64,000 nt of DNA from Sphagnum compactum. Its lineage: Eukaryota. Below, piece by piece: positions 11,258 through 58,800 of this stretch. The translations under genes were made by a program, and so were the position numbers. Numbering within the stretch: the stretch's first letter is position 1; every line of letters starts with the position of its first letter. Under the pieces are notes generated by a model, which saw only the letters and a list, made by a program, of their open reading frames with translations, searched no databases and had not been told where the DNA came from. The DNA lies in NCBI GenBank assembly GCA_965153455.1, contig OZ234493.1:30308213-30372212 (forward strand), read 5' to 3'.

Positions 11258-11475
11258 CACTACAACAACAAGGGGCTATTTTGCGATCCAAATATCATCG
11301 CAAACAACAAAGAAAGAAATTTTCAAAAGCTCGTTGTTGTGAACCATAATTCCTCGCAAACTTTTAACCTTTTGCGATACCATAACATTCGCACCCGTAC
11401 CATTGCAAGTCCTTCACAACTCCCGAACTTGATAAAATCGCAAAACTTTCCCGATTATAACTGCTTCTATACATT

Positions 11476-12323
11476 GTTTGCGATTAACACTACATCAGAA
11501 ACTATTTGCAACAAACCCATCACCGCAACGACTTAGCGAATCGACTCAAAAGTCTATCGGTTTCTGATATAAGATCTGATGCAAACATTTCGAGATTCTC
11601 AAAATGCCGCTAAAAGTTTGCGATTAACATTACATCGGAAACTATTTGCAACAAACCCATCACCGCAACGACTTAGCGAATCGACTCAAAAGTCTATCTG
11701 TTTCCGATGTAAGATCTAATGCAAACATTTTGGGATTCTCAAAATGCCGCTAAAAGTTTGCGATTAACATTACATCGGAAACTATTTGCAACAAACCCAT
11801 CACCGCAACGACTTAGCGAATCGACTCAAAAGTCTATCGGTTTCCGATATAAGATCTGACGCAAACATTTCGGGATTCTCAAAATGACGCTAAAAGTTTG
11901 CGATTAACATTACATCGGAAACTATTTGCAACAAACCCATCACCGCAACGACTTAGCGAATCGACTCAAAAGTCTATCGGTTTCCGATATAAGATCTGAC
12001 GCAAACATTTCGGGATTCTCAAAATGGCGCTAAAAGTTTGTAATTAACATTACATCGGAAACTATTTGCAACAAACCCATCACCGCAACGACTTAGCGAA
12101 TCGACTCAAAAGTCTATCGGTTTCCGATATAAGATTTAACGCAAACATTTCAGGATTCTCAAAATGCCGCTAAAAGTTTGCGATTAACATTACATCGGAA
12201 ACTATTTGCAACAAACCCATCACCGCAACGACTTAGCGAATCGACTCAAAAGTCTATCTGTTTCCGATGTAAGATCTGACGCAAACATTTTGGGATTCTC
12301 AAAATGCCGCTAAAAGTTTGCGA
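11476..12323 (+). repeat. Tandem array of six ~140-bp units in the left subterminal region of the CACTA element
   Basis: GTTTGCGATTAACATTACATCGGAAACTATTTGCAACAAACCC...CTCAAAATGCCGCTAAAA recurs at 11476, 11616, 11756, 11896, 12036 and 12176 (exact period of 140), with only scattered substitutions. Confidence 0.97.
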
Positions 12324-24799: not shown

Positions 24800-24948
24800 T
24801 CATAGTTGCACCATAGTTGCATACACACCCAAAAAGGGGGCAAAAATCCATTGTAGTTGCATAAAATACCAAAGATAGTTGCATGCGACCGGCAGTTGCA
24901 TCCCAGTTGCAAACATGGTGGTTGCATATGACAGAATTTCTAGTAGTG
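24800..24948 (+). mobile_element. Orphan terminus of a second CACTA family
   Basis: Ends ...CATATGACAGAATTTCTAGTAGTG (reverse complement CACTACTAGAAATTCTGTC), preceded by multiple AGTTGCA/GTTGCA subterminal repeats. No matching partner end was found in the cargo. Confidence 0.75.
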
Positions 24949-25129
24949 GAAGAATTATGACCCGCAAATGGTTTTGAAATCCACTGTGTATCGCAAGAGC
25001 ATGGCACTGTATTCTTATTTTGGAAGCAGGGTTTATATTCATTTGGAGTCACTTTGGAAGGCAAAAAAAAAAATCTATATCAAAATTTCAAAATTTACAA
25101 TGTAAAAGGGTTTGCAACCCTTGGGTATC
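24949..25129 (+). repeat. 181-bp direct repeat, copy 2 (right flank of cargo; 3' of the TnpA-like gene)
   Basis: Near-identical to 12426-12606; begins immediately after the orphan TAGTAGTG end. Confidence 0.95.
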
Positions 25130-25144
25130 TAACACACTAGCTGT

Positions 25145-26909
25145 CTATCTAGACTTCCTTCCCCTCTTGGATTTCTTCCTTGAATTTTTCTTCCTAGTGT
25201 TCTCTGGTGGAGGCGGAGGCTGCTCATCCTCCTCCCTCTCTTCATCGTCCCCCTGCCCCTCGTCCTCGTCCTCGTCCTCCTCCTTATCCTCTTTATCTTT
25301 GCCCCCTGCAGAACCTGCATTTCGACTAGCAAATGAACTGGGTCCATTGCTAGTGGTAGCACTGGGAGTAGTGCTAGCGCCTCTCTCCTCCTCATCACTG
25401 CTGCCCTGGGAGCTCTCACTCTCACCCTTAAATGCCTGCATTTCAACATGCAAAGCTTAGTTAACACCATAAATGAAAATCTTGATTCAAATGAAAACAA
25501 TCTCAACACAAACAGAAATTGAATCCCAACCAAACCCACTCACCAATAGTGCATCAACATGTTCAAAAAGATGCTCCTTGCCATGCTCCTGGCCCATTGT
25601 CATTTCTGCAGCTGTGATCTTCCTCTTGTACCTCTTGTACTATCCCCATAATATAACAGGTCAATAAAAACGCATAAAGAATCTATTCAAGTCTCCGACC
25701 ACTTTTGCGAAGCGCAGACCTTCGCATATTGAAACTTGCGAAACAGTTTGCGAAACAAATCCCATCGTATCTTTGCGAAACAAACGCCATTTGACCTATA
25801 TTTGCGATGCAATTCGCATCGCAAAGGTATTGCAAACAGTCCTATTTAACTCCACAGAAACTCAACTTTATTCGAATCTTTGCAGGAAAGAAATGGAGGA
25901 GAGGGAGGGTACTTACAAATGCTACTTTGAGGCCGGGAATGCCACCTTGACCTAGCCTGTGGGTGGTGGGTGGAACCAGTTTCACTCGCTCTGCTGCCTT
26001 GAGGAACTTCAATGGTGGATCACCAACCTCGTCCACCACTGATTGGCATTCAGCAAGCTTCAGCTCCAGTGCCTTCAGGTCACGATTAGACCTCCCAAAC
26101 TCTCTTGCCTTCGAAGCCTTGGCTAGCTGCTCTGTGATCTCCTTCAGCTGCCTTGCTGCTTTCAGCTGCACCTCAGACTGGTAGAAGGCATTCCAGATGT
26201 CTTCTGAGAACTGAAGCGGCCTCTCCAAGTTCCTGTACACATTCAGGTTTCTCAGGTGAGCACGAATCTTCATCCTGTCATGGTATCTTGCTTGAGACAT
26301 TGAATTGGAGATCTTGTCTGCAATCCACTGTGAATCAAGCTCTCCTCCATTTCGAAATGCTCCCTTGACCTGATTTATCACTCTCTTCTGCTCTGCCTTT
26401 GAGAGAGTGCCCCACTCAACTCCTCGTGCAAAGTTGGTGGAGACAATGTGCCTAATGGTGCTCTTGGCCCCAGTGTATGCCAACTCGGTTGGAATTCCCT
26501 CCTCTGCCAATGTTATTAGAGGGAGCTTCTTCCTCTCCTCCTCCTTCTTCTTCAGGTCGAGCTTCTCCTTTCTGATGGCATCCCTCTCATCCTTCCTCCT
26601 TTTCTTCTCGAGAGTTTTAGGTGAAAGAGCTCCTGTTGTTGCTCCCTCATCTCTCTTTCTCTTCTTCTCTGCTGCCTTGGCTTCTGCAGCCTTCCTTGCC
26701 TCCTCCTCTCTTTGTGCTTCCCCAACAGTCAGCCCTGCTTGCAATGCTTGACCTAAGATGGCTGTCAAGGATGCCAGCCCTTCAGGTGTCCTAGTATCGA
26801 TTGCAAACAGCTCTGAAGCTTTCAAGTGATCAGCAACCATCTTCCTCAACCTTTCCTCATTGTTGTCACCTGCTCTAGACCCAAAACCCCCTCCACCAGT
26901 CCCAGCCAT
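25145..26909 (-). CDS. CACTA second ORF, TnpA/PTTA (Transposase_24)-like, 3 exons, ~459 aa, apparently intact
   Basis: Exons 26909-25917, 25639-25544 and 25435-25145, all phase-0 GT-AG. RPLQFSEDIWNAF and HRLGQGG motifs are typical of En/Spm PTTA proteins; acidic then basic C-terminal tail. Lies inside the CACTA element. Confidence 0.7.
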
Positions 26910-27434
26910 TGCAATCCGCAACCTCCTCTCTGCCCAAGCTTTCCTTCGACACTTCTCGAGTAATGCCGAGAATGAATTCAAATTCACTCGCCGTCCTACT
27001 CTAGTCTAGACCCCCAGAAAGATTACACTACACCTTCAAGGGATTCCGTTCCAGCTTAAGGACTTTCGGCAATTCAGGTCTTGCGATGTAATCCGCATTG
27101 CAACTTACGATACGCTATTTATCGCAAAGGAGTCTGGGTTTCAAAAATGACTAACGGATGCATTTCCGAAGGCCGTGCAATGCTGTTAGTTTCGCAAAGT
27201 TAGAGAGTTGCGAAGTCTGGGGCTTCGCTAATGTAGGAGGAAGTTAAAGGGTTTAGGGCTTTGGTTTAAGTAACGTATGCAGATGCGAAGAGGGATGCGA
27301 TGGTGGGGGGTTCGCAATGGGTTCGCAAAGTTTTAATTTATTCTGGCTTTATCATTTTGTTGTTTTTTTTGCATATGCCAAAGGGTTTCGAGCAACCAGT
27401 CCTATAGGCATTGTTGAGCCCACATTGGATGCAG
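26910..27434. promoter_or_regulatory. Putative bidirectional promoter / 5' region between the divergent TnpA-like and ZnF-SET/TnpD genes
   Basis: Head-to-head gene arrangement; CpG-containing TGCGA/TCGCA cluster at ~27080-27330; 5'UTR intron GTATGC...ACAG at 27435-27563 on the plus strand. Confidence 0.45.
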
Positions 27435-27568
27435 GTATGCATTTCTTTTTGGTTTAGGTAGTCTCAATTTACGAGTAGTCAAGGGTTTATATTGTTGTAT
27501 CACATGGTTTTTGAAAGTCTAATCTGGTCTTTGCCTTACGTTTGTGCCTTATTAATGTGACAGATGAT

Positions 27569-27799
27569 ATGTCTTCCTCCTCCGTTGTCTCCACTAGTGA
27601 CTCATCCTCCTCAAATGAAGGCACATCAGCTCATACGTAAGCAGAGGTGTCTCATTCTCCTCGTGGTCCACCTCGGCAGCTTTGCCAATGCACCAAGTGT
27701 GTTGGTCAGATTTCACAAAAGTCATATGTTTGTGCTCAACACATTCAGCGATTTGGGCGTCATCGTGGTCTTACCCCAGGAGCTTTTTCATCGCATGTG
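27569..27799 (+). CDS. First coding exon of the CACTA transposase: transposase-associated zinc finger (in-frame TAA at 27638-27640 in this copy)
   Basis: MSSSSVVSTS...AHT*AEVSHSPRGPPRQLCQCTKCVGQISQKSYVCAQHIQRFG fits the CxCxxC...H...G pattern of the CACTA Transpos_assoc domain. Phase-0 donor GTG|GTAAGT at 27799/27800. Confidence 0.7.
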
Positions 27800-27915
27800 G
27801 TAAGTGTCATTTTACCATTGTCATTTTTCCTCTTTGATACATGTTATTTTTCATGAAATCCTCTTTGAAACTATTTTCACTTCCATGGTTTGTTGTGGTT
27901 TTTTGAATGTAATAG

Positions 27916-28716
27916 GGTTCCCGTATGACACCACCACCCTATGTTCTATCACAAGGGGTTTTAGCTGCCATAGGAAATGCACTTTCACATGCATTTGCTG
28001 TAGGGATTGGTACCTCTCATGAGGCCAGTAAGCCACATCATGAGGAAAGGCCACTTGTGCCCTCCATTAGGCAGCGATCCAAAGCACAACGTCCAAGTGA
28101 GGGTCATGCTAGGACTATTGTTGAGGGCAGATGGGGTATGTGTGAGTTCACTGGCAAATGTGCTAATATTATCCAGTCATGGAACCCTGCAGTTCTTGGG
28201 TTGCTTAATAGTTTGCCCTATGATGAGGAGGTTGTGGTTTGGGGTAGACGATGGATTGTTAAGACCTCTACACTCGGAGAGAGACATGGCTATGGAATAT
28301 ATGCTTGTGAGGACATCATTGTAGAGGATTCAGCTAGTTGTCGTAGAGAGGGTCCTACTTTGTTCCCTTATGGTGGGCCTATCTATAAGAGAAAACATTG
28401 GAACATGATCCTCACACAACATCCTGAGTGGAAGACCTTTGCTCTTGAGATGGACACATTTGCTGGTAGCACTAGGAGGCATAGTGATGGGAGGGTGATA
28501 GATGGAGACCCCATACGTTCTGGAAACATTGCTGGTTTCATCAACAGTACGGTGGGGATTCAGCCTAAGCGTAGGGCTAATTGTGAGTGGGTTTTTGTTG
28601 AGGGACCTCCTCCAACACCATATGGCCAGACTTATCATGAAGACCATTGCCTGGTTATAGCTACTAGGACCATCAGATCAGGAGATGAGTTGTTTACACA
28701 CTATGAGTGGAATTAG
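27916..28716 (+). CDS. SET-domain (lysine methyltransferase-like) exon encoded within the CACTA element
   Basis: 263-aa uninterrupted ORF with SET motifs in order: HGYGIYACEDI, FPYGG, VIDGDPIRSGNIAGFINS, NCEW, IATRTIRSGDELFTHY. Phase-0 acceptor TAATAG|GGTTCC at 27915/27916. Confidence 0.85.
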   Translation, partial: GSRMTPPPYVLSQGVLAAIGNALSHAFAVGIGTSHEASKPHHEERPLVPSIRQRSKAQRPSEGHARTIVEGRWGMCEFTGKCANIIQSWNPAVLGLLNSLPYDEEVVVWGRRWIVKTSTLGERHGYGIYACEDIIVEDSASCRREGPTLFPYGGPIYKRKHWNMILTQHPEWKTFALEMDTFAGSTRRHSDGRVIDGDPIRSGNIAGFINSTVGIQPKRRANCEWVFVEGPPPTPYGQTYHEDHCLVIATRTIRSGDELFTHYEWN

Positions 28717-28862
28717 GATTCCACCATTTTTGAACTATGTATTTTGTTTAAGACATAACATACCATATCTATATACATGCATTTTGGCATTTTTTATTTA
28801 TAATGTAATATGTAACTATGCTTGGTATATAGTTAAGATCTTCTGGATTTGGTATTGCATAG

Positions 28863-31800
28863 AATATTCGGCCTTCTGAAGACATGCTGCCACGGAGGTT
28901 GAGAGCAACATATCGGGAAATGGGCATGCCACACAAATCAGACTCTTCATTAACTCATTCTTCATCAAATGACTTGTCTGCTCATGATGAAGGTGTCTCT
29001 CAACCAGTTCAGGAAGCACCACTGCCTGCAAACCAAGAACAAGCGATGGATGACTTCATGGTTGACTGGTTTGGACTTGACATAGTTGATGATATGTTTG
29101 GCAACCCACATGATGAAGGAGCCAATGCAGATGATCCACGTCATCAACATACTGCCCAGGGACAACGGCAGTGGCAAGAGGCGAAGGCACATGTTCAAAC
29201 ACCTATTTTTCAAGGTGCAAGGTTAAGCCGTTTAGCAGCCATACTGGGGTTGTTAAACATCCAAGCAAAACACAAGGCAAGCAATACTATGTTGTTAGAC
29301 ATTTTCCAGTATTGTCATAGCCTCTTGCTGCCTAAGGAAAATGTTTTGCCAGGATCTTGGAAGGAGGCTAAAAAGATCTTATTCTCCATAGGCATGGAGT
29401 ATCAAATTGTCCATGCATGTGTTAATGACTGCATGCTATTTCATGGGAATAATGCCCATTTAACGGAGTGCAGTACATGTGAAGAGGCTCGATATGATCC
29501 TCACATGCTTACAGAGAAGGTGCCCAGGAAATCAATAAGGTGGTTTCCCATTATTCCTCGCTTGTTGCACATGTATCGATGTACAGACTTGGCCAAGTTA
29601 ATGGTTTGGCATAAGAAACATCGATCAGAGCCTGGTGTTATGAGGTTACCGGTTGACTCTCCTGCTCACAAGCATGTGGAGTCAACATGGCCAGAGTTTG
29701 AGCGTGACCCTAGGCATGTGAGGTTGGGGTTAGCATCAGATGGTGTTAGTCCACATTCACTTGGAGGAAAGGGACGACCTACCTCTGTTTGGCCAGTTGT
29801 TGTCATGAATTACAACCTTCCTCCGTGGTTGTCTATGAAAAAAAGATTTTTGCTGCTTTCTCTTATTATCCCAGGGCCAAGTAAGGTGAAAAACCTAGAC
29901 ACCTACTTAGCACTAGTGGTCGATGAGCTCAAAACGCTGTGGGATGGAGTATGGGCATATGATGGGAGGAAGACCACTGGAGGAATACCACGTGTATTCA
30001 AGTTGAGGGCAATCTGCATGTGGACAATGCATGATTATCCTGGTAAGAAATCATGCACATGCCTCTATATATCTTTTTATTATTCTGTTTTGTGATTGTT
30101 TGTTGTTCTAATATTCAGTTCTTCTACAATCAGGGTTTGGTTTTGTAAGTGGGCTGCAAACTCAAGGCTACAATGCCTACTCTACATGTGGCCCAAGTTT
30201 GGAGGACATGGCTAAATACTCAAGCCATCTTCGCAAAATTGTTTACCTTGGCCATACAAAGTTTCTTCCACTGGGACATGATATGAGATCAGACCCACTT
30301 TTATTTTCATCTTTTGACATGCCTTATGGTGATGAGCGTGATATTCCAAAACCTACCACTTTTGCATATTGGAGGGATGTGGCCAATAGAGTTATTGACC
30401 CAAATGATTCTATGGTGTTTGAGGGTAGTGGATTGACAAGGTGGGGTATACTCAACAGCTTGCCCTACTGGGGTGAGTTGAAAATACGTCATCTCTTGGA
30501 CCCCATGCACATTGAGGGAAATGTGGGAAAGGCTATCATAAAACAGCTCTATGGAGAAAAGGACAGTAACTTTAGGGAGGCCTGTGAGGATTTTGAGAGG
30601 CATCCCGATGTGTGGATTATTGTTGATCCTAACACAAGTATTGAGCAGCGACCATCAGCTCCATGGACACTTACTACACAGGAAAGAAAAGACTTTCGAA
30701 ATCGTATAGGAGAGATGCGATTCCCTACAGGTTTGAACTTTGATGGCAAGGGTTGAATTTAGAAATACTCTGTTGCTTTTATTTATATTTAAATCTGTAT
30801 GCCTTATACTGGAAAAAGAGTTTGAAGTATAGAATGTTATCTGTTGGATGTCTAGAATACTTTTGTATAATTTTATGGATCCTTGTTGTAGGTTATGGAG
30901 TTAATCTTCAAAAAGCTTTTGGTAGGGACGATGACCACAAGTGGCCAAGGTATCTCAAGACACATGACTATCATCGTTTACTGCAGCACATATTGCCTGT
31001 GGCAATAATAGGCTTAGCCAGTGCAGAAGTACAAAATGCTCTTTGGTCACTGGGATATCTATTGAGATGGGTATGCTCAAAGGAGTTATTTATAGAGGAG
31101 ATTCCAAGAATGAGGGTAATAGCAGCAGAGGTGGTATGCAAGTTGGAAAAGGCCTTCCCTCCATCATTTTTTGATTGTCAGGTGCATGTACTAGTTCACC
31201 TTGTGGATGAAATAGCCATTGCTGGTCCTGTGCATTGTAGGTGGATGTATTGGCTTGAAAGATATATGGCAGTATTAAAGGGTTATGTCCGTAACCATGC
31301 ACGAGTGGAGGGAAGCATGGCAACAAGACACTTGGCAGCAGAGAGCATGTTTTATTGCACCAACATCTTGGCCACTATAGATCCATCATGTCCTCATGTC
31401 TGGATGGAGGAAAGAGAAGAGGAGGAAGACCGTTTGACTGGTGCCATCAAAACACGTATGTTATTACATACAGAGTTAATTCAGCTGACCACATTCATGT
31501 TGAATAATAGCAATGTCATGGAAGAGTGGAGGAACTTCTATGAGAATGCCAAAAGTATGAGTGGGAGATCAAGGATTTTTCTTACGTTTCATAAATACAT
31601 GAAAGAGAAGTTGGCTGAAGTGGATCAATTGTTGGCACAAGGAGAAAGTATAGCATGTTTTCCAGAGATCACAGATGATGTTTGCACCATTGTTCATGGA
31701 CCACTGAGAGTTGTGACAACACGTTCAGCAATGTGGACACAAGGAAGACATTTCAGGTATTTATTTTTTCTATTTCATTAGGCATATTAACTCATCTTCA

Positions 31801-32393
31801 CATTCCAGACAAGTTTTTTAGAATGTTCTAGGATGATTTTTATGGGCATGAAGTTTCTATTATCATATAAGTTGTTGACTCACAATGCCTAACACAATAT
31901 TAATTTCACGATTTCCAGTTTGGATGAAAAGAGGGGCCGCACCTTTGACTATGGAGTTCAAGGGCAATTCATTCAGGACTCTAGAAGCAGTTGGCATGAC
32001 AGGAATATTGTTCGAGATATTGTGCCACATTATGGAAAGCTGGAAGAGATCTTGGTGGTATCTTATGATGCACATTCAAAGTTTGAAGAGTATGTGTTTA
32101 AGTGCAAGTGGTTTAAAGTGAACCTTGCTGGTGCAAATTGCACTGTAGTTCAGGATGAGTGCGGACACACACGGTTAAAGACATCTGCCACCAGTTATCA
32201 GCCATCTCATTGGCAAACTTCAGAGCCATTTACTTTTCCCAGTCATGTAAAACAATGCTTTTATCTTCCTTATCCCCCAAACCCAGAGGAGTGGTCACTT
32301 GTTGTCACATATGTGCCACGGTCCCGTTCTATTCTAGGTGAGAAACCAGAGGTTGTGTTTACAACCTCTGAGGTGGATGATGACCACGTATAA
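28863..32393 (+). CDS. CACTA TnpD/Tnp2 transposase (Transposase_21, DUF4218 and DUF4216-like regions), catalytic exons
   Basis: Exons 28863-30042, 30134-30730, 30892-31756 and ~31919-32393, spliced in frame. Motifs HACVNDCMLF, RLGLASDGVSP, WPVVVMNYNLPPW, HDYPG, DPMHIEGN, LKTHDYH, FPPSFFD, GPVHCRWMYWLERY, FKCKWF, EPF.FPSHVKQCFY. Confidence 0.95.
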
Positions 32394-33154
32394 TGTACTA
32401 CTCATTATTTTTATGCAAATTGCCATTGAGGCTTGTGGTTCTATATTACTGCACAATGTTCATTGTGTTATTTTCTACCTATTCTGCTCCATTGTGTAAT
32501 TTTATTTTTAAGAATAGGAGCACTGCTATGCGTACTTTACTGATATTTTCACTTAGTTTGCCAAGGCAAAATAGATTATAATAATGGTTAAGTGGATTTA
32601 TAGCTTCCATTTGGTTTAAAAGATTTTTTATTTTTTTTATGGCATTTTGGGAATCAGATGACATTGCGAAACCTTTTGCGAAACTTCCTTCTCCAGTAAC
32701 CCTTTCACTAATTTGCGAGCTAACGCACATCGCAACTTGCGATACGTACACCATCGGAAAGTTTTGTAAAAATTTGTGATGAGGTTTGCGATACATATTC
32801 AAACGCAAAATGCGAGGCGCTGAATAACGCAAGCTTGCGATGTCTTGTGATTCTCAAAATTTGTAGCGATTTTTTGTGTATTGTAAAATGTGCGATGTTT
32901 TGAGTATGATTAAACGTTGCGAAGTGTGGAATATCGCTAGGGTGGACGGAGACTAAGCGGGTCGCAAAGTTTTGTTTGTGGTATATGTCGCAAAAGTGTT
33001 GCGATGAAATAAGGTACATTATAAATTAGCGATGGGTGGTGCTGCACAAGTTGCGATGCGTGTCGCATCGCAAATATGGCAGGTTGTTTTTGCTTCGCAA
33101 ACCCTTCAGGTTTTTTGTTTGGCCCTTCGCAAAAAGGCACAATATGTAGTAGTG

Positions 33155-36100
33155 AAGGGCGAGGTTAAGGCCCACTAAGATAGTCGTTCCTGCACACCAA
33201 CGTTGAAAATGTCCTAGTTGTAAACCTAGATTCCAAAAAACAACTCCATTCCATTTTTCAACTCCATTCCATTTTTCAACTCCACTCCCTTCTCATACCT
33301 ATCACATTGTGTTTCACTCAATTGATGCACTTGCAACAACACAATTTGAGGTGGCAATTCTAGATATTGGATCCAAGCTTTTATTTATTTTTGCTTCCTA
33401 ACACCATGACCTTTCCCCAAACCGCATAAATTCAATGTTACCATTGTTAGGGCCTTGTCGAGGGCGGTTATTAAACCGATCGACCCCCCTTCATTAATAA
33501 CTACCAACTTAACTTGCCTTTGCCTTCGATTAGATTGAGGTGAAGAAAAGCTGCCACTAGTAACTATTATTGCATCTTTATTTGATTGTATATCCACAAC
33601 AACTACCACCCCTCATTGGAAGTTACTATAGGAACTTAATTGTCCTACAACAAAACACCCATGACTGAATGCGAGCCGTTTCCTTCATTGATGTCTTCTT
33701 TTTCGTCCTACATTTAGATTTTTGAACCTTCCAATTAGTAAGATTAGTTGAACATAAGCTTGGGATTGTGAAGTAGTCTTCACCATTTGAGGTGGTTTGA
33801 GTTGTAATATCTTGAAGTGGAGGCTACTCCTCATTTGCCCACTTCACTAGACTTTTCCTTTTTTGAGTTACTAATAATATCAAATTTGGAGCATGTGTTT
33901 TTTTTGAGCTCCAACCTTTGTCAGCACCTAATTTTGAATGGCAACTATGGATGAAGTAGTGGTAGTCTTATTAATAGTTTGAGTATTGCCACTTGGGCCA
34001 CCACCTTAAAGTTGGTGATTCCCTCCATTGACCTGAGTTTGATGATTCCTTGTATTGACTGGCAAATCCCTGCATTAGTTGCTACTTAATTCTAGTACAA
34101 TAGTTGACAAAACCCTAGCACCCACATTATGCATAGGCAAAATCTGAGTGCCCCATTAGTTACATTAATCAAACCACCACCTTGAGGTTGATGATTCTCT
34201 AAATGATCTTGATTCTGTCTTGCTTTACTTGTTATATCATGTGTTTTTCCTATGTAGAAGTAACATGAAAAACCTACGCAATCCAAATAAGAGATGGCAA
34301 AACCCAAACACTTGCTTCATGAATAAGCAAAATTATAACACTTTTAATATGGGTTGACAAACGTGAACACCCACATGTGGTTGATCTTGTCGATTCTATT
34401 GTGTAACTAGTGTTTTGCCACCATTATGATCTGAAATCGACCCCCTCTTGAATCTTGCGACCTTATCATTCCAAGTTGGCAGTTGCGAAACATTTATGTT
34501 TGCCAATTCATGTAGCGACACTTTTTGAATTTGACAAGTTCTGGCAAAATGTCCAAACTTCCTACACTTTCAACACTAATCAGGCAGCCCCAAGTAAATG
34601 ATCTATTGAGAATATGTTGCATCAATTAGATCTTTAATATCCAAGGATGGCAAACGAATGCTCCCTGGATTGCTCCTTGGGAGTTGTGTGATATGAGACA
34701 CTTCTACTGTCACCATGGGCCATGTTTGCTACTTGATGTATGAATTTGGTTTTTCAACTTCAAGAACTTCCTCAATCATCCGAACAAGCAATGTCGAATT
34801 TTCAACGTTGCAAAATTGAAAATTGAGGTCAGGAAATTGAACCTTGATAACATGTGATAACATCTGTTTCACGCCTTGAGCCATAGTGTTGGAATGAGTT
34901 CGCCATTGTGATAAGCTAAATGTCATCCCATTTCATTCCAGCACGAATAATTTCCTAGTGATAATGGCCCTGACATCTTCTGTGAATGAAATATCAAAGA
35001 ATCCTTTTCTGAGCAATGTAATTAATTTGTATGAAACATGGAGATGTATTTGCATATAATCACGTATTGGCTTTTGAGATGATTTACACCCAATGCACCT
35101 ATCAAAAACTAGTTCGCAACCCCAATTTACTTTTGTTTCCTTGCTTGCATGAATACATAACTATGTGTACTTGTGCACAAGTTCCCATGCCAAATTAATT
35201 GGCGATGAACCTTGGAGATCCCTAGGTGACGAAGGTTTGAATCCTAGTTCTTTGCTTGTAGTTTCTTGGCCTGCTACATATGGTGTATTGGCAACATGAT
35301 CCTTGGTTCTTCTGCTTTGGCGAAGCTTGGTAGAGTAGTCACATGTGACCTTGTTGCATTATCCCCTTTAGGACGAGGTGTGGATATTTTGAAAGCTGCT
35401 CCTTCTCCACTAGTTAGGTTCGACATCACAGTGTCCTCTTTAGTCATAACCATGTTTAATTTTTGAATTTTTGAGCAAGAAAAGAGATGATGATTAAACA
35501 TAGTTGCCTTAGTCTTGTTGGAATTTTGATTAGATAATTCAAGAATATAAGGACTTGGCTGTTCCATAGATTAATACATCGTGGTAGCAATAATGTAAAA
35601 AGCTGGATCTTGATGCAATTGTGAAGGATTGACAATACAAGTGTTCCCTATCGTTAATGCATGTGAAGAATTTGCAATAGATCCAATCAAAGAAACATTT
35701 AGTACATTTACATCAACATTGACCTTCTTAGGAAAGGTAATTGGAGACAAAAACCCGTGAAATCACTACATATGCAAGATCCTAAGGCCTCCATTGCCTC
35801 CATGGATGCTACCCCTAGACTTTCCTAATCTTGTACACCCCCTCCCCCTTGAGAAAATGCTCTGAAGATCGATATCCCAACACCATTTTAGCCTTTACTT
35901 ACTAGGTTAGTGTGACTAATAAGATTCGCCATCCCAACGTTCCTGTTAGTTACACTCCTCATCTTGCTTTCTAGCAAGAAATATTTAACATTGGGATTTT
36001 CGCACATAATCAAAGTTAGAAAGAGATCTCGGATCCTCCATAGCCACACACAACAAATCAACAACTAAGAAACCTCATCGAAACACAAAAACACAAACCC
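33155..36100 (-). mobile_element. Degenerate LINE, 5' part (ORF1 with zinc knuckle and endonuclease N-terminus)
   Basis: GLPD*C*KCRKFGHFARTC (CCHC knuckle) at ~34530-34590; RWCAGTTILVGLNLAL at 33155-33200 continues in frame into 11254 and below. The 5' boundary is approximate. Confidence 0.7.
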
Positions 36101-55899: not shown

Positions 55900-58800
55900 C
55901 CTGTTCATCCACATATCCAACAAAAAGATTAAGGTCTTTCACAACTCCCCATTAATGATTTTTTCTTGTTTGGCTTTTTCATATTCACCAAATCAATGCC
56001 TGCATTGAAACAAGGAAAAACTTGTTTTCCCTTCTAGAATGCATAAGCCCTACACTGCTGCACTTGAACTTGTTCATTAAGAACCCCGACACCGACTTGT
56101 GCAACTTAGAAATTAATTGCAATTTTACAATCACTTGATTAGTTAATTTTTCAACACTCAAGTCTTTAGCAAAAGTATGCATAAGCATGTTAAGGTAATT
56201 GTCAGCTTTTAGCATGGGAATACATCCAATGAGTACCATAAAAGGGGAAAACTTGGTGCTTGCCCACACCCCACACTTGTATCCAAACAATACTTTAGGT
56301 AGTTAAATATCCCAAGATTTGACATTCTCCTGGAATGTAAACATAATAGTGATGTCATGTTTAATGGTTTTGATTAAACTTTCTACCATGCCATCACACC
56401 ATGGCCACTATGGCACTATGTACTAATGTTGAATACCATACACCTTGCACAAGTTGTCGGATTTTGCAGACCATTCACCCCCATTGTAAGTGAGAATGAA
56501 CTTGGGTACACCATACCAACAGATAATGTCCTCTTCCAAAAACCTAGCAATTGTTGCAATTATATGATCCTTGACTGTTTTTGCTTCAGACCATTTTGAG
56601 TAATGGTCTATTGCCACTAGTATGTATTTGTTGCCATCATTGGTTCCAGGCAACGGTTTAACAATGTTTAATGCTACCTTGTAAAATAAATCACACATTG
56701 GAATGCTTTTCAAATCCTCCACATCTGATTTCATACTCCCAATTCTTCTTATAAGCTAGCATTCCTTACATGCTTTCACCACTAAACACATTTGCACATT
56801 TTTGTTGTGCCAATAAAATCTTTTATAAATTATATTAAGGTTCGCTTCTCACTGAAATGACCAATCTTTTGATGCATTTCTTCAATAATGCTTCTCCTGT
56901 CTTCTAGTTTTGGAATAGTCAATCCCTTGAAGTACAATTGAGCATACTACCATACATAATTTTTGAACCTTCTTTTTTACCTTAATTGTTTTTTTTACAT
57001 TCTCATCCCATGGGAATTGCCTAGTTTGTAACAAGTGCAAGCAATCCTTATCCTCCCATATATTTACAATCTTCAAGTCACTCCCTTTATTGTTAAGGTC
57101 CTCTAAGTGATACTATCATCATCCAACTCAATCAATTCATTGTCCACCATTAATTGAGCTTCTGTTGCTACATCCCAACATACATTCATGTTAGCATCCA
57201 ACCTTTTCCTCTTGTGCAGCAGTGGGGATGTTGCCTTGTCTCCTTCAATCTCATCATTATGCACTTCATTCTCTGCATCCATCTCTACTTCATTGATATT
57301 TCTTCCAACTTTTTCCATGCATGGTTCTACCATGAACATGTTAGCGATGGTACTACAACGAATATTTTGCCTTCCAATCCATGTCTAGACCCCTAATTCT
57401 TTTAGCATTTTGATGTCCTAAATTTCTTTTGAAAAATCTTCATCATCTTTTGCCCAATTCACTAGGTTCTTGTTCAAAGCATCAACATTGGAATGTTTAG
57501 ACCGGATTGGTGTAATCGTTAAAATGAAATCATGTGGCATATCAATTTAATGACCCTTCCTTCCATAAACATTAGATTCTATGTCCAACCACTCTAGTGG
57601 TTTATGGTTAGTCTTCAATGTGAAATGGTTATGATGCAAAAATTGGCGAAAATGCATGATTTCCAAATTAGGGCATAACATTCCCCCTCCATTGGATGAA
57701 ATCGCTTTTGGATAGAGGACAAACCTTTATTGGCATAGGTAATTACATGTTCACATCTCCTATCTCTTTGTGACAGGATGACGCACTGCCAAACTCCTTA
57801 AAAAGACTCAAATGCAGATCCCAAATTGAAAACAATAGAAGAAGGAATTAGGGCACGTTCCCTAATTCGCAACATTTTTAGGGTAAAAAGGGCGCGCTAG
57901 AGCTCCGGGGTGGGGACTAAGACAAATGACAAGTGGGTCAATTATTCATATGGATCTACACAAACCAAACAATAAGTTGGTTAATGCATAATTGGAACAT
58001 TTTTGGTGCACGGACAAGCCACGAGCATACACAGACTCACAAGACTCACCACCGCCCAAATTTGCGGGGGGAAGCCACCACCTTCTCCCTTATATTATTT
58101 TTTATGACTGGCCATGGGGGTTGCACCCAAATGTCATTTTCCCCAAAACTCCTAATTCGGGAGTCCCAAAATTTTCGAAATTAGGATTCCCACCACTTTG
58201 GAAGCCCACAACTTCTTGTGCAAAATTCCAATTGAAACAAGGTCTAAATCAAAATTGTAGCCCTTGTTGAAAGCTTCCCAACAATATGTGACACATCACT
58301 TGCACGCACGTAATTCAGGGCGATTCCCAACTTTTAATGGTCAGAAGTCAAATTGACACTTTGATTTCCGACCCTTCTTTCAACCATAATTTGTGTTGTA
58401 AATACTCAAATGGATCATGCGAGCCCATTTTAAACATCTACGTTTTAAGAGCTTTTCAATGGTATAAAAAAGTTTTCAAAACAATGAATTTTGACCTTTC
58501 AAATCACTCTCTAAAAATTTGGGACTCCATAGGGACTCCAACTCCCAAAGTGAGAGTCCACTTGGGAATGTGTGAGCTAATTCCCTCACACTCTTTCGCC
58601 CTCCCAGGAGTATGAATGTGATTCATGGGTTGCACTTTTGGCCCGCACCTTTCCATGCCCTTGTTTTGGTCACGAGCCCATAATTAAGGTCGTGACACAA
58701 GATGACACCTACCCCCTTAACTGACTAATCAACATCAAGAATAAACACCTTATAAAAATCAAGTCTCACCAATACTAATGCAACACCAAAGTTTGTTTCA

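Follow-up and report, generated by a model that had tools for sequence, protein, structure and literature searches.

The 64,000-nucleotide (nt) stretch of Sphagnum compactum DNA considered here (contig OZ234493.1 of assembly GCA_965153455.1, positions 30,308,213 to 30,372,212 of the forward strand; referred to below as the window, positions being counted from its first letter) contains a defective copy of a high-copy DNA transposon family of the CACTA/EnSpm type. The transposase gene is preceded on the same strand by two coding segments, an exon encoding a zinc finger (ZnF) and an exon encoding a SET domain, and a third conserved open reading frame (ORF) lies upstream on the opposite strand. 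A sequence-only reading of the locus had proposed that the ZnF exon has two in-frame partners, the SET exon and the transposase, between which alternative splicing would choose. The first of these junctions is supported by predicted gene models, whereas the second, a direct join of ZnF to transposase, occurs in none of the 37 ZnF-bearing proteins of at least 94 amino acids (aa).

The ZnF frame opens at ATG 27569 with a Ser-rich stretch followed by PPRQLCQCTKCVGQISQKSYVCAQHIQRFGRHRG; the exon, which includes CQCTKCVGQISQKSYVCAQHIQRFGRH, closes in phase 0 at 27799 before the donor GTAAGT, and the acceptor TAATAG, followed by G at 27916, opens the SET frame of 266 codons with its stop TAG at 28714-28716, the splice sites, phases and stop being those read from the letters. 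The exact junction 27799>27916 is present in gene models of five Sphagnum species and of Calypogeia. The spliced ZnF models come from S. jensenii, S. troendelagicum, S. balticum, S. tenellum, S. fallax, and Calypogeia fissa. SSSH(V/M) joined to GS.. is read across the junction in P0002, P0007, P0008, P0010, P0039, P0179, P0048, P0028, and P0190 (S. fallax BDL97_02G129200) and in Calypogeia P0040, P0060, and P0197, while Calypogeia P0015 has SSSRM joined to VSS at the equivalent point; P0002, for instance, is 343 aa long, that is, 77+266. The sole exception among the spliced ZnF models examined is P0183, in which the same donor leads into another frame inside the SET exon. More distant proteins show the same order of domains: Riccia sorocarpa has ZnF-linker-SET proteins of 30-40% identity (P0053, 501 aa; P0075, 372 aa; and P0070), and P0058, from a 2.1-kb assembly contig, carries finger and SET in one unbroken ORF of 423 aa. 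In divergent families represented by unspliced ORF calls (P0085, P0095, and P0106), SSSH(M/V) runs straight into a Val codon, as would be expected if the GT donor were conserved at this position.

Sister copies of the element, 80 loci obtained from a scan of metagenome contigs, show the same arrangement. Intron 1 is present in all 28 loci that have both exons, with a gap of 101-118 nt between ZnF and SET. Of 27 sisters, 25 have GTAAGT as donor and two GTAAAT, and 23 have TAATAG as acceptor and four TAATAA; these counts do not discriminate, the family copies being about 90-95% identical throughout. The intron is 116, 117, and 118 nt long in 15, 10, and two copies, respectively, a variation that is not that of coding sequence.

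Pfam recognizes the SET domain in 27916-28713 with E=1e-5 and 26.4 bits against a cut-off of 22.4; most relatives score just under the cut-off, at 19-25 bits. A profile search of Protein Data Bank (PDB) sequences returned weak matches only, to EZH2, MLL, and LegAS4 (E about 0.03). The AlphaFold2 model has a mean predicted local distance difference test (pLDDT) score of 76, mostly 85-97 (about 90) in the SET core and 63-78 in the finger, and with it Foldseek finds 312 PDB chains at E<=0.001, LegAS4, SETD8, G9a, MLL1, and ATXR5 at the top. The fold predicted for ORF 27916-28716 is thus that of a SET domain. In 36 SET sequences of about 30% identity the blocks WGRRWIVK.STLG..G.G.FA.EDI, LFPY.G..Y, IDGDP.R.GNIAGYINS, and GDELF..Y are invariant or nearly so; the glycines of GxG (G202 and G204) never vary, and EZH2 can be aligned with the C-terminal GDELF..Y block.

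The SET ORF has 49 relatives in a large protein collection, the named ones being from Sphagnum species (80-95% identity) and from the liverworts Calypogeia fissa and Riccia sorocarpa, and 115 proteins match at E<=0.001 among 1.84 billion representatives. The clade is small, and every looked-up member with an organism name is a bryophyte. Within it the family is abundant, a single S. jensenii protein cluster at 90% identity (that of P0002) having 360 members.

The ZnF exon of the window copy itself is disabled. An in-frame TAA at 27638-27640, between ATG 27569 and the zinc finger, had been overlooked in the sequence-only reading, and because of it neither fusion can be made from this ATG in this copy. 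The same codon reads CAG in 39, CAA in nine, TAG in four, and CAT in one of 53 sister copies covering it, and C stands at 27638 in every contig of four sequencing runs examined; the TAA is a defect of the window copy, formerly CAG, a CHG-type site. The four sisters with TAG have acquired it independently, an observation that fits methylated-cytosine deamination driving the decay of copies.

An alignment of the zinc-finger family shows three Cys and one His kept, followed by G-R-H/Y. The finger had been taken for the Transpos_assoc domain (PF13963) of CACTA transposases. Pfam does not support this assignment: the window exon has no PF13963 match at E<=10, nor have ten family proteins, full-length ZnF-SET models and short ZnF-only ORFs, at E<=1. 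The finger matches no other Pfam family either and has no usable match in the ESM Atlas.

We read the locus as containing an accessory gene, ZnF-SET, that is conserved in a CACTA lineage of bryophytes and composed of two coding exons, and give this reading a probability of about 0.65. That such a gene yields a spliced ZnF-SET product is quite probably correct and the most likely reading of the junction, on the strength of gene-model predictions and conservation. Intact copies would encode a protein of about 343 aa, in which a Ser-rich N-terminus is followed by a CCCH-type zinc finger, then a linker, and finally a divergent SET lysine methyltransferase. The gene would occupy a fixed place, on the same strand as the transposase and directly upstream of it, in moss and liverwort CACTA lineages alike, and the transposase would most simply be translated from its own ATG 28884. 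The finger may guide the SET enzyme either to DNA of the element or to some other target, chromatin or protein, and so alter the host's treatment of the element.

Several observations weigh against this reading or parts of it. All proteins supporting 27799>27916 are predicted models, among which those with RNA support cannot be distinguished. The only RNA-library contig over the first junction (27664-27981, 318 nt, runs X1 and X2) is unspliced. The canonical NH motif of SET domains reads N-S (I-N-S), without the His, and for that reason methyltransferase activity is plausible from the sequence, not assured; targeting of DNA by the finger is purely inferred. Further, the SET exon has an internal start codon, ATG 27925, retained in 26 of 27 sisters; its sequence evolves close to neutrality within the family, with a pairwise ratio of nonsynonymous to synonymous substitution rates (dN/dS) of 0.87 in 18 copies; and only five of 18 full-length copies are free of stops and indels in SET.

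The RNA-library data are to be read with caution. They comprise contigs of three RNA-library runs and one probable DNA run, and such contigs cannot show absence; X1 and X2, from different studies and years, have identical contigs and depths and count as one data set. About half of the sampled words of 27500-30100 were found in metatranscriptome runs, and all 30 bins of 25600-33300 are covered, but transcription cannot be deduced from this coverage because it extends over introns and subterminal DNA as well. The RNA-library contigs may be DNA carry-over. Neither 27799>27916 nor 27799>28863 is among the 15 joints listed out of 58, where the high-depth DNA run probably crowds out joints from RNA.

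The internal start codon suggests that SET might be translated alone, as a protein of 263 aa, from ATG 27925, with the ZnF exon as a short ORF by itself or a leader and with ZnF-SET models that are artefacts of prediction. Models of this kind do exist: 263-aa proteins of JGI type in S. magellanicum and S. fallax begin at the ATG equivalent to 27925, S. troendelagicum too has 263-aa models, and Met stands at this position in other subfamilies also (P0013 and P0217). However, mosses and liverworts alike conserve the ZnF exon as coding sequence, and no stop closes it before the conserved GT donor, so that it must be spliced to something. Moreover, no Met is found close to where the SET exon of Calypogeia P0015 begins, finger and SET share one unbroken ORF in P0058, and a 116-nt intron would be an unlikely promoter. 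We regard independent translation of SET as improbable.

The near-neutral dN/dS, the small share of intact copies, and the altered NH motif would also be expected of a host gene fragment captured passively, in the style of Pack-CACTA elements, and decaying without a function for the element. The corresponding dN/dS is 0.60 for the ZnF exon (49 copies), 0.59 for part 1 of the transposase (seven copies), and 0.58 for part 2 (eight copies), blunt values since most differences within the family are decay after insertion; they show, as far as sequence comparison goes, a finger exon constrained like the transposase and a SET exon less so within Sphagnum. Against a dead passenger speaks the conservation of SET motifs over long distances, with signature blocks invariant or nearly invariant across the 36 sequences compared. 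The position and strand of SET are constant in every transposase-bearing copy: the transposase frame begins 139-150 nt behind the last sense codon of SET (stop included) in 24 of 24 loci, and none of the sister loci has a transposase without SET. The order ZnF-SET-transposase is implied also by the Riccia models P0131, P0105, and P0143, and a clade of 115 relatives among 1.84 billion representatives, all named ones bryophyte, is unlike a recent copy of a host SET gene. Passive capture thus appears very unlikely. Candidate autonomous variants lacking SET were rejected, the three mapped ZnF loci concerned being truncated (L068), internally deleted (L055), or ending at the first bases of the SET exon (L075); by their coordinates, most other ZnF loci without a SET match end at the contig end.

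In addition to the ZnF-SET gene, the splicing of the ZnF exon to the transposase has to be considered. In this scheme one promoter would drive one ZnF exon, spliced alternatively to a terminal SET exon or, at 28863, to the transposase, with the finger as a DNA-targeting module common to both products. The acceptor GCATAG, followed by A at 28863, does open the transposase frame, as had been noted, and the transposase ATG is at 28884-28886, the position 28886 given previously being its last base. Donor and acceptor are both in phase 0, and no other AG of this phase up to 29000 leads into the transposase frame; the acceptor is retained in 20 of 21 sisters, and in 18 of the 21 the seven codons preceding the ATG are open. 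A zinc-finger domain is missing from the N-terminus of the transposase ORF, and the alignment of this ORF with P0160, a CACTA transposase of an angiosperm, starts only at residue 99 of P0160, directly after the PF13963 domain of that protein. The spacing of the finger, C-x-C-x2-C-x13-H-x4-G, is that of angiosperm Transpos_assoc domains, and hhalign of 28 ZnF sequences with eight angiosperm N-termini gives P=0.002 over 29 columns in the CxCxxC...H register, compared with P=0.11 for a reversed control. Alternative splicing has a precedent in TnpA and TnpD of maize En/Spm.

Other observations speak against this scheme. That both acceptors are in frame follows from their definition, because each is the TAG stop bounding its ORF upstream, and TAG bounds seven of the 18 window ORFs of at least 150 codons in this way; between 27801 and 29000, 19 AG sites give at least 100 open codons after the donor, 17 of them in the SET frame (27916 and 16 further inside), one in another frame (28004), and one being 28863. 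The geometry of two in-frame acceptors is thus weak evidence by itself. Conservation of acceptor 28863 is uninformative, because in this young family the 146-nt spacer is conserved to the same degree over its full length, spacer and intron being conserved no less than exons. The probability that hhalign attaches to its match is low (13.7%), and the Pfam model, as said, does not match. The transposase brings an ATG of its own, which all 21 sisters retain, and a 589-nt RNA-library contig (28693-29280) runs unspliced through the SET stop, the spacer, and 28863.

As to the proteins, no long transposase without SET is found among the ZnF matches from 1.84 billion representatives, and the architecture required is absent from the 115 proteins matched there as it is from the 37 ZnF-bearing proteins of at least 94 aa; this absence is weak evidence, because the collection holds almost no full-length Sphagnum transposase models. 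The longest ZnF-bearing protein, S. jensenii P0009 (404 aa), is a chimera of ZnF, part of SET, and transposase, which leaves the SET exon at an internal GTGAGT (28583-28588) and enters the transposase exon in another phase (AG, 28991-28993). The Riccia models P0131, P0105, and P0143 likewise pass from part of SET into transposase. Chimeric ZnF-SET-transposase models (P0009, P0131, and P0143) may mislead surveys of domain architecture. On balance, splicing of one ZnF exon to both partners is rather unlikely. Equally doubtful is its functional extension, by which the common ZnF module would direct a methyl mark to chromatin or protein at the element's copies or at the transpososome, a device kept since before the moss-liverwort split or passed between the two groups.

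The ZnF-SET gene read as two coding exons remains our preferred interpretation, and the features around it are collected in Table 1. The spacer between SET and the transposase would hold either the 3' untranslated region and poly(A) region of the ZnF-SET gene or a promoter from which the transposase is transcribed, or else form the last part of a long intron. The transposase has at least four exons, approximately 28884-30042, 30134-30730, ~30890-31757, and ~31926-32393, the limits being a GT/AG reading based on tblastn alignments with Riccia and angiosperm CACTA transposases.

Table 1. Features of the CACTA/EnSpm copy and its genes (window positions)
Feature	Position	Strand	Remarks
CACTA/EnSpm copy body	24949-33154	+	Broken at left; similarity to sister copies begins at 24949
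Lys/Glu-rich ORF, 387 codons	25842-27005	-	Divergent from ZnF-SET gene; family unknown
Region between divergent ORFs	27006-27568	.	Carries TCGCAAAG-type motifs
Zinc-finger exon	27569-27799	+	Ser-rich N-terminus, then C-x-C-x2-C-x13-H...GRH; disabled by TAA 27638-27640
Intron 1	27800-27915	+	116 nt, GTAAGT...TAATAG, 71% A+T
SET-domain exon	27916-28716	+	266 codons + TAG; internal ATG 27925
A+T-rich spacer	28717-28862	+	73% A+T; 146 nt in 17 of 21 sisters
Transposase gene	28863-32393	+	First ATG 28884; Transposase_21, DUF4218, DUF4216; without Transpos_assoc
3' subterminal region and terminus	32660-33154	+	Dense GCGA/TCGC motifs

The assignment of the element to CACTA/EnSpm follows from its transposase and its ends. 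Downstream of the SET ORF, Pfam finds Transposase_21 (PF02992, E=1.5e-40), DUF4218 (E=7.8e-32), and DUF4216 (E=1.7e-07). Termini of CACTA type are CACTACAACAACA at 11258 and GTAGTAGTG at 33154. The right end of the copy reads CAATATGTAGTAGTG at 33140-33154 (reverse complement CACTACTACATATTG), and contigs of different copies from the sequencing runs part ways just behind 33154-33158. The true left terminus of the family, CACTACAACAACA, is seen at window position 11258 and in the sister locus L055, with unrelated flanks. The two family ends in the window do not belong to a single intact, continuous copy. The right end is followed by AAG, and with the matching left end of the copy missing there is no pair of 3-bp target-site duplications to compare. 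The coding part of the element occurs once in the window. Contigs of the probable DNA run add up to a very high depth over the entire element, and copies with internal deletions occur. Owing to the nonsense codon in its ZnF exon and to a left arm that is not contiguous, the copy described here is not autonomous.

Repeats typical of subterminal regions are found on both sides of the genes. The window has six occurrences of TCGCAAAG, where 1.03 would be expected, and three of them lie at 27122, 27192, and 27323; the left arm has a 140-bp unit repeated 6.1 times at 11476-12323; and an inverted-repeat pair (I2) of 27 nt links 25798-25824 with 33051-33077. Motifs of the TTGCGA/TCGCAA type cluster in both orientations at 25690-25830, 27100-27330, and 32660-33130, and these clusters are candidate binding sites for an element-encoded protein. 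As another potential left terminus, CACTACACC at 27027 was rejected, since other copies continue through this point with a variable patch.

The minus-strand ORF of 387 codons lies upstream on the opposite strand in 45 of the 55 ZnF-bearing sister loci, and has neither a Pfam match nor a usable match in the ESM Atlas. It could be the counterpart of a TnpA-like DNA-binding protein in this CACTA family. The region between it and the ZnF exon is presumably the promoter or leader of the ZnF-SET gene.

Three further observations concern the surroundings of the copy. The segment 11258-12606, which opens with CACTACAACAACA and holds the 140-bp repeats, is a second, separate left-arm fragment of the CACTA family; it cannot simply be the split-off left end of the main copy, because about 180 bp of it overlap by homology with 24949-25129 of that copy. 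At 24934-24948, abutting position 24949, TTTCTAGTAGTG resembles the 3' terminus of another CACTA-type element (CTAGTAGTG), which suggests that a nested or adjacent insertion removed the left arm of the main copy. Finally, the continuation of a truncated SET-bearing metagenome locus (L034, positions 598-1403) is 72% identical to window 57779-58592, a likeness that points to a second repeat family common to the genome of the window and those metagenomes.

Transposons that carry chromatin enzymes of their own are rare, and show how mobile DNA answers silencing by the host. If the gene is as we read it, a peat-moss CACTA family has, as a constant component present in many copies, a SET methyltransferase equipped with a zinc finger of its own, and divergent versions occur in liverworts. 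The literature searched, which left Repbase Reports and supplementary files outside, yielded no account of a CACTA element of bryophytes that carries a SET gene. Public annotations file such proteins as 'SET domain-containing' or leave them unnamed, and they can inflate the counts of host chromatin genes in bryophytes. Should the finger bind the subterminal repeats, the family would offer both a tractable case of a self-directed chromatin writer and a concrete test of the role of the N-terminal zinc finger in CACTA transposases.

Among known systems, one close counterpart is the maize CACTA element En/Spm, which produces TnpA and TnpD by alternative splicing. CACTA termini, subterminal repeats, a transposase of the Transposase_21 type, and more than one product from one strand are common to both. 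In the Sphagnum family, in contrast, the second gene stands upstream of the transposase and encodes ZnF and SET rather than TnpA or Transposase_24, a third conserved ORF occupies the opposite strand, and alternative splicing of a shared exon is only putative. With respect to the finger, the PF13963 domain of angiosperm CACTA transposases has the same Cys/His spacing and sits before the acidic linker of the transposase; the moss finger differs in going undetected by the Pfam model, in the absence of the N-terminal half of the Pfam domain, and in being attached to SET in every model seen. SETMAR (Metnase), in which a primate SET gene is fused to an Hsmar1 mariner transposase, likewise has SET and transposase on the same strand, and the two are proposed to be linked by splicing. 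SETMAR is domesticated and single-copy, whereas here the family is mobile and multicopy, and joins of SET to transposase are seen only in partial chimeric models that truncate SET (P0009, P0131, and P0143).

Other transposons have also acquired SET genes. HarbingerS elements and MuDR families of Phytophthora have taken them up (PMC12730594). Capture of SET by Helitrons is described as well, and in the red alga Bostrychia the Plavaka elements (EnSpm/CACTA) possess an accessory gene, PAG2, whose product combines a DNA-methylase domain with SET (bioRxiv 10.1101/2025.02.11.637652). HarbingerS, MuDR, Helitron, and Plavaka share with the Sphagnum family the presence of a SET accessory gene beside the transposase of a DNA transposon. 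Compared by description only, the system reported here differs from them in its bryophyte hosts and in the CCCH finger exon that precedes SET, the SET domain of PAG2 being instead fused to a DNA-methylase domain. An anti-silencing factor encoded by the transposon itself is known from the VANDAL (MuDR) elements, whose VANC is mentioned in the same two sources (PMC12730594; bioRxiv 10.1101/2025.02.11.637652). VANC is an unrelated protein without a SET domain; what it would have in common with the ZnF-SET protein is that a transposon-encoded factor acts on the epigenetic state of its own element, and by analogy the ZnF-SET protein might serve a comparable function in the bryophyte CACTA lineage.

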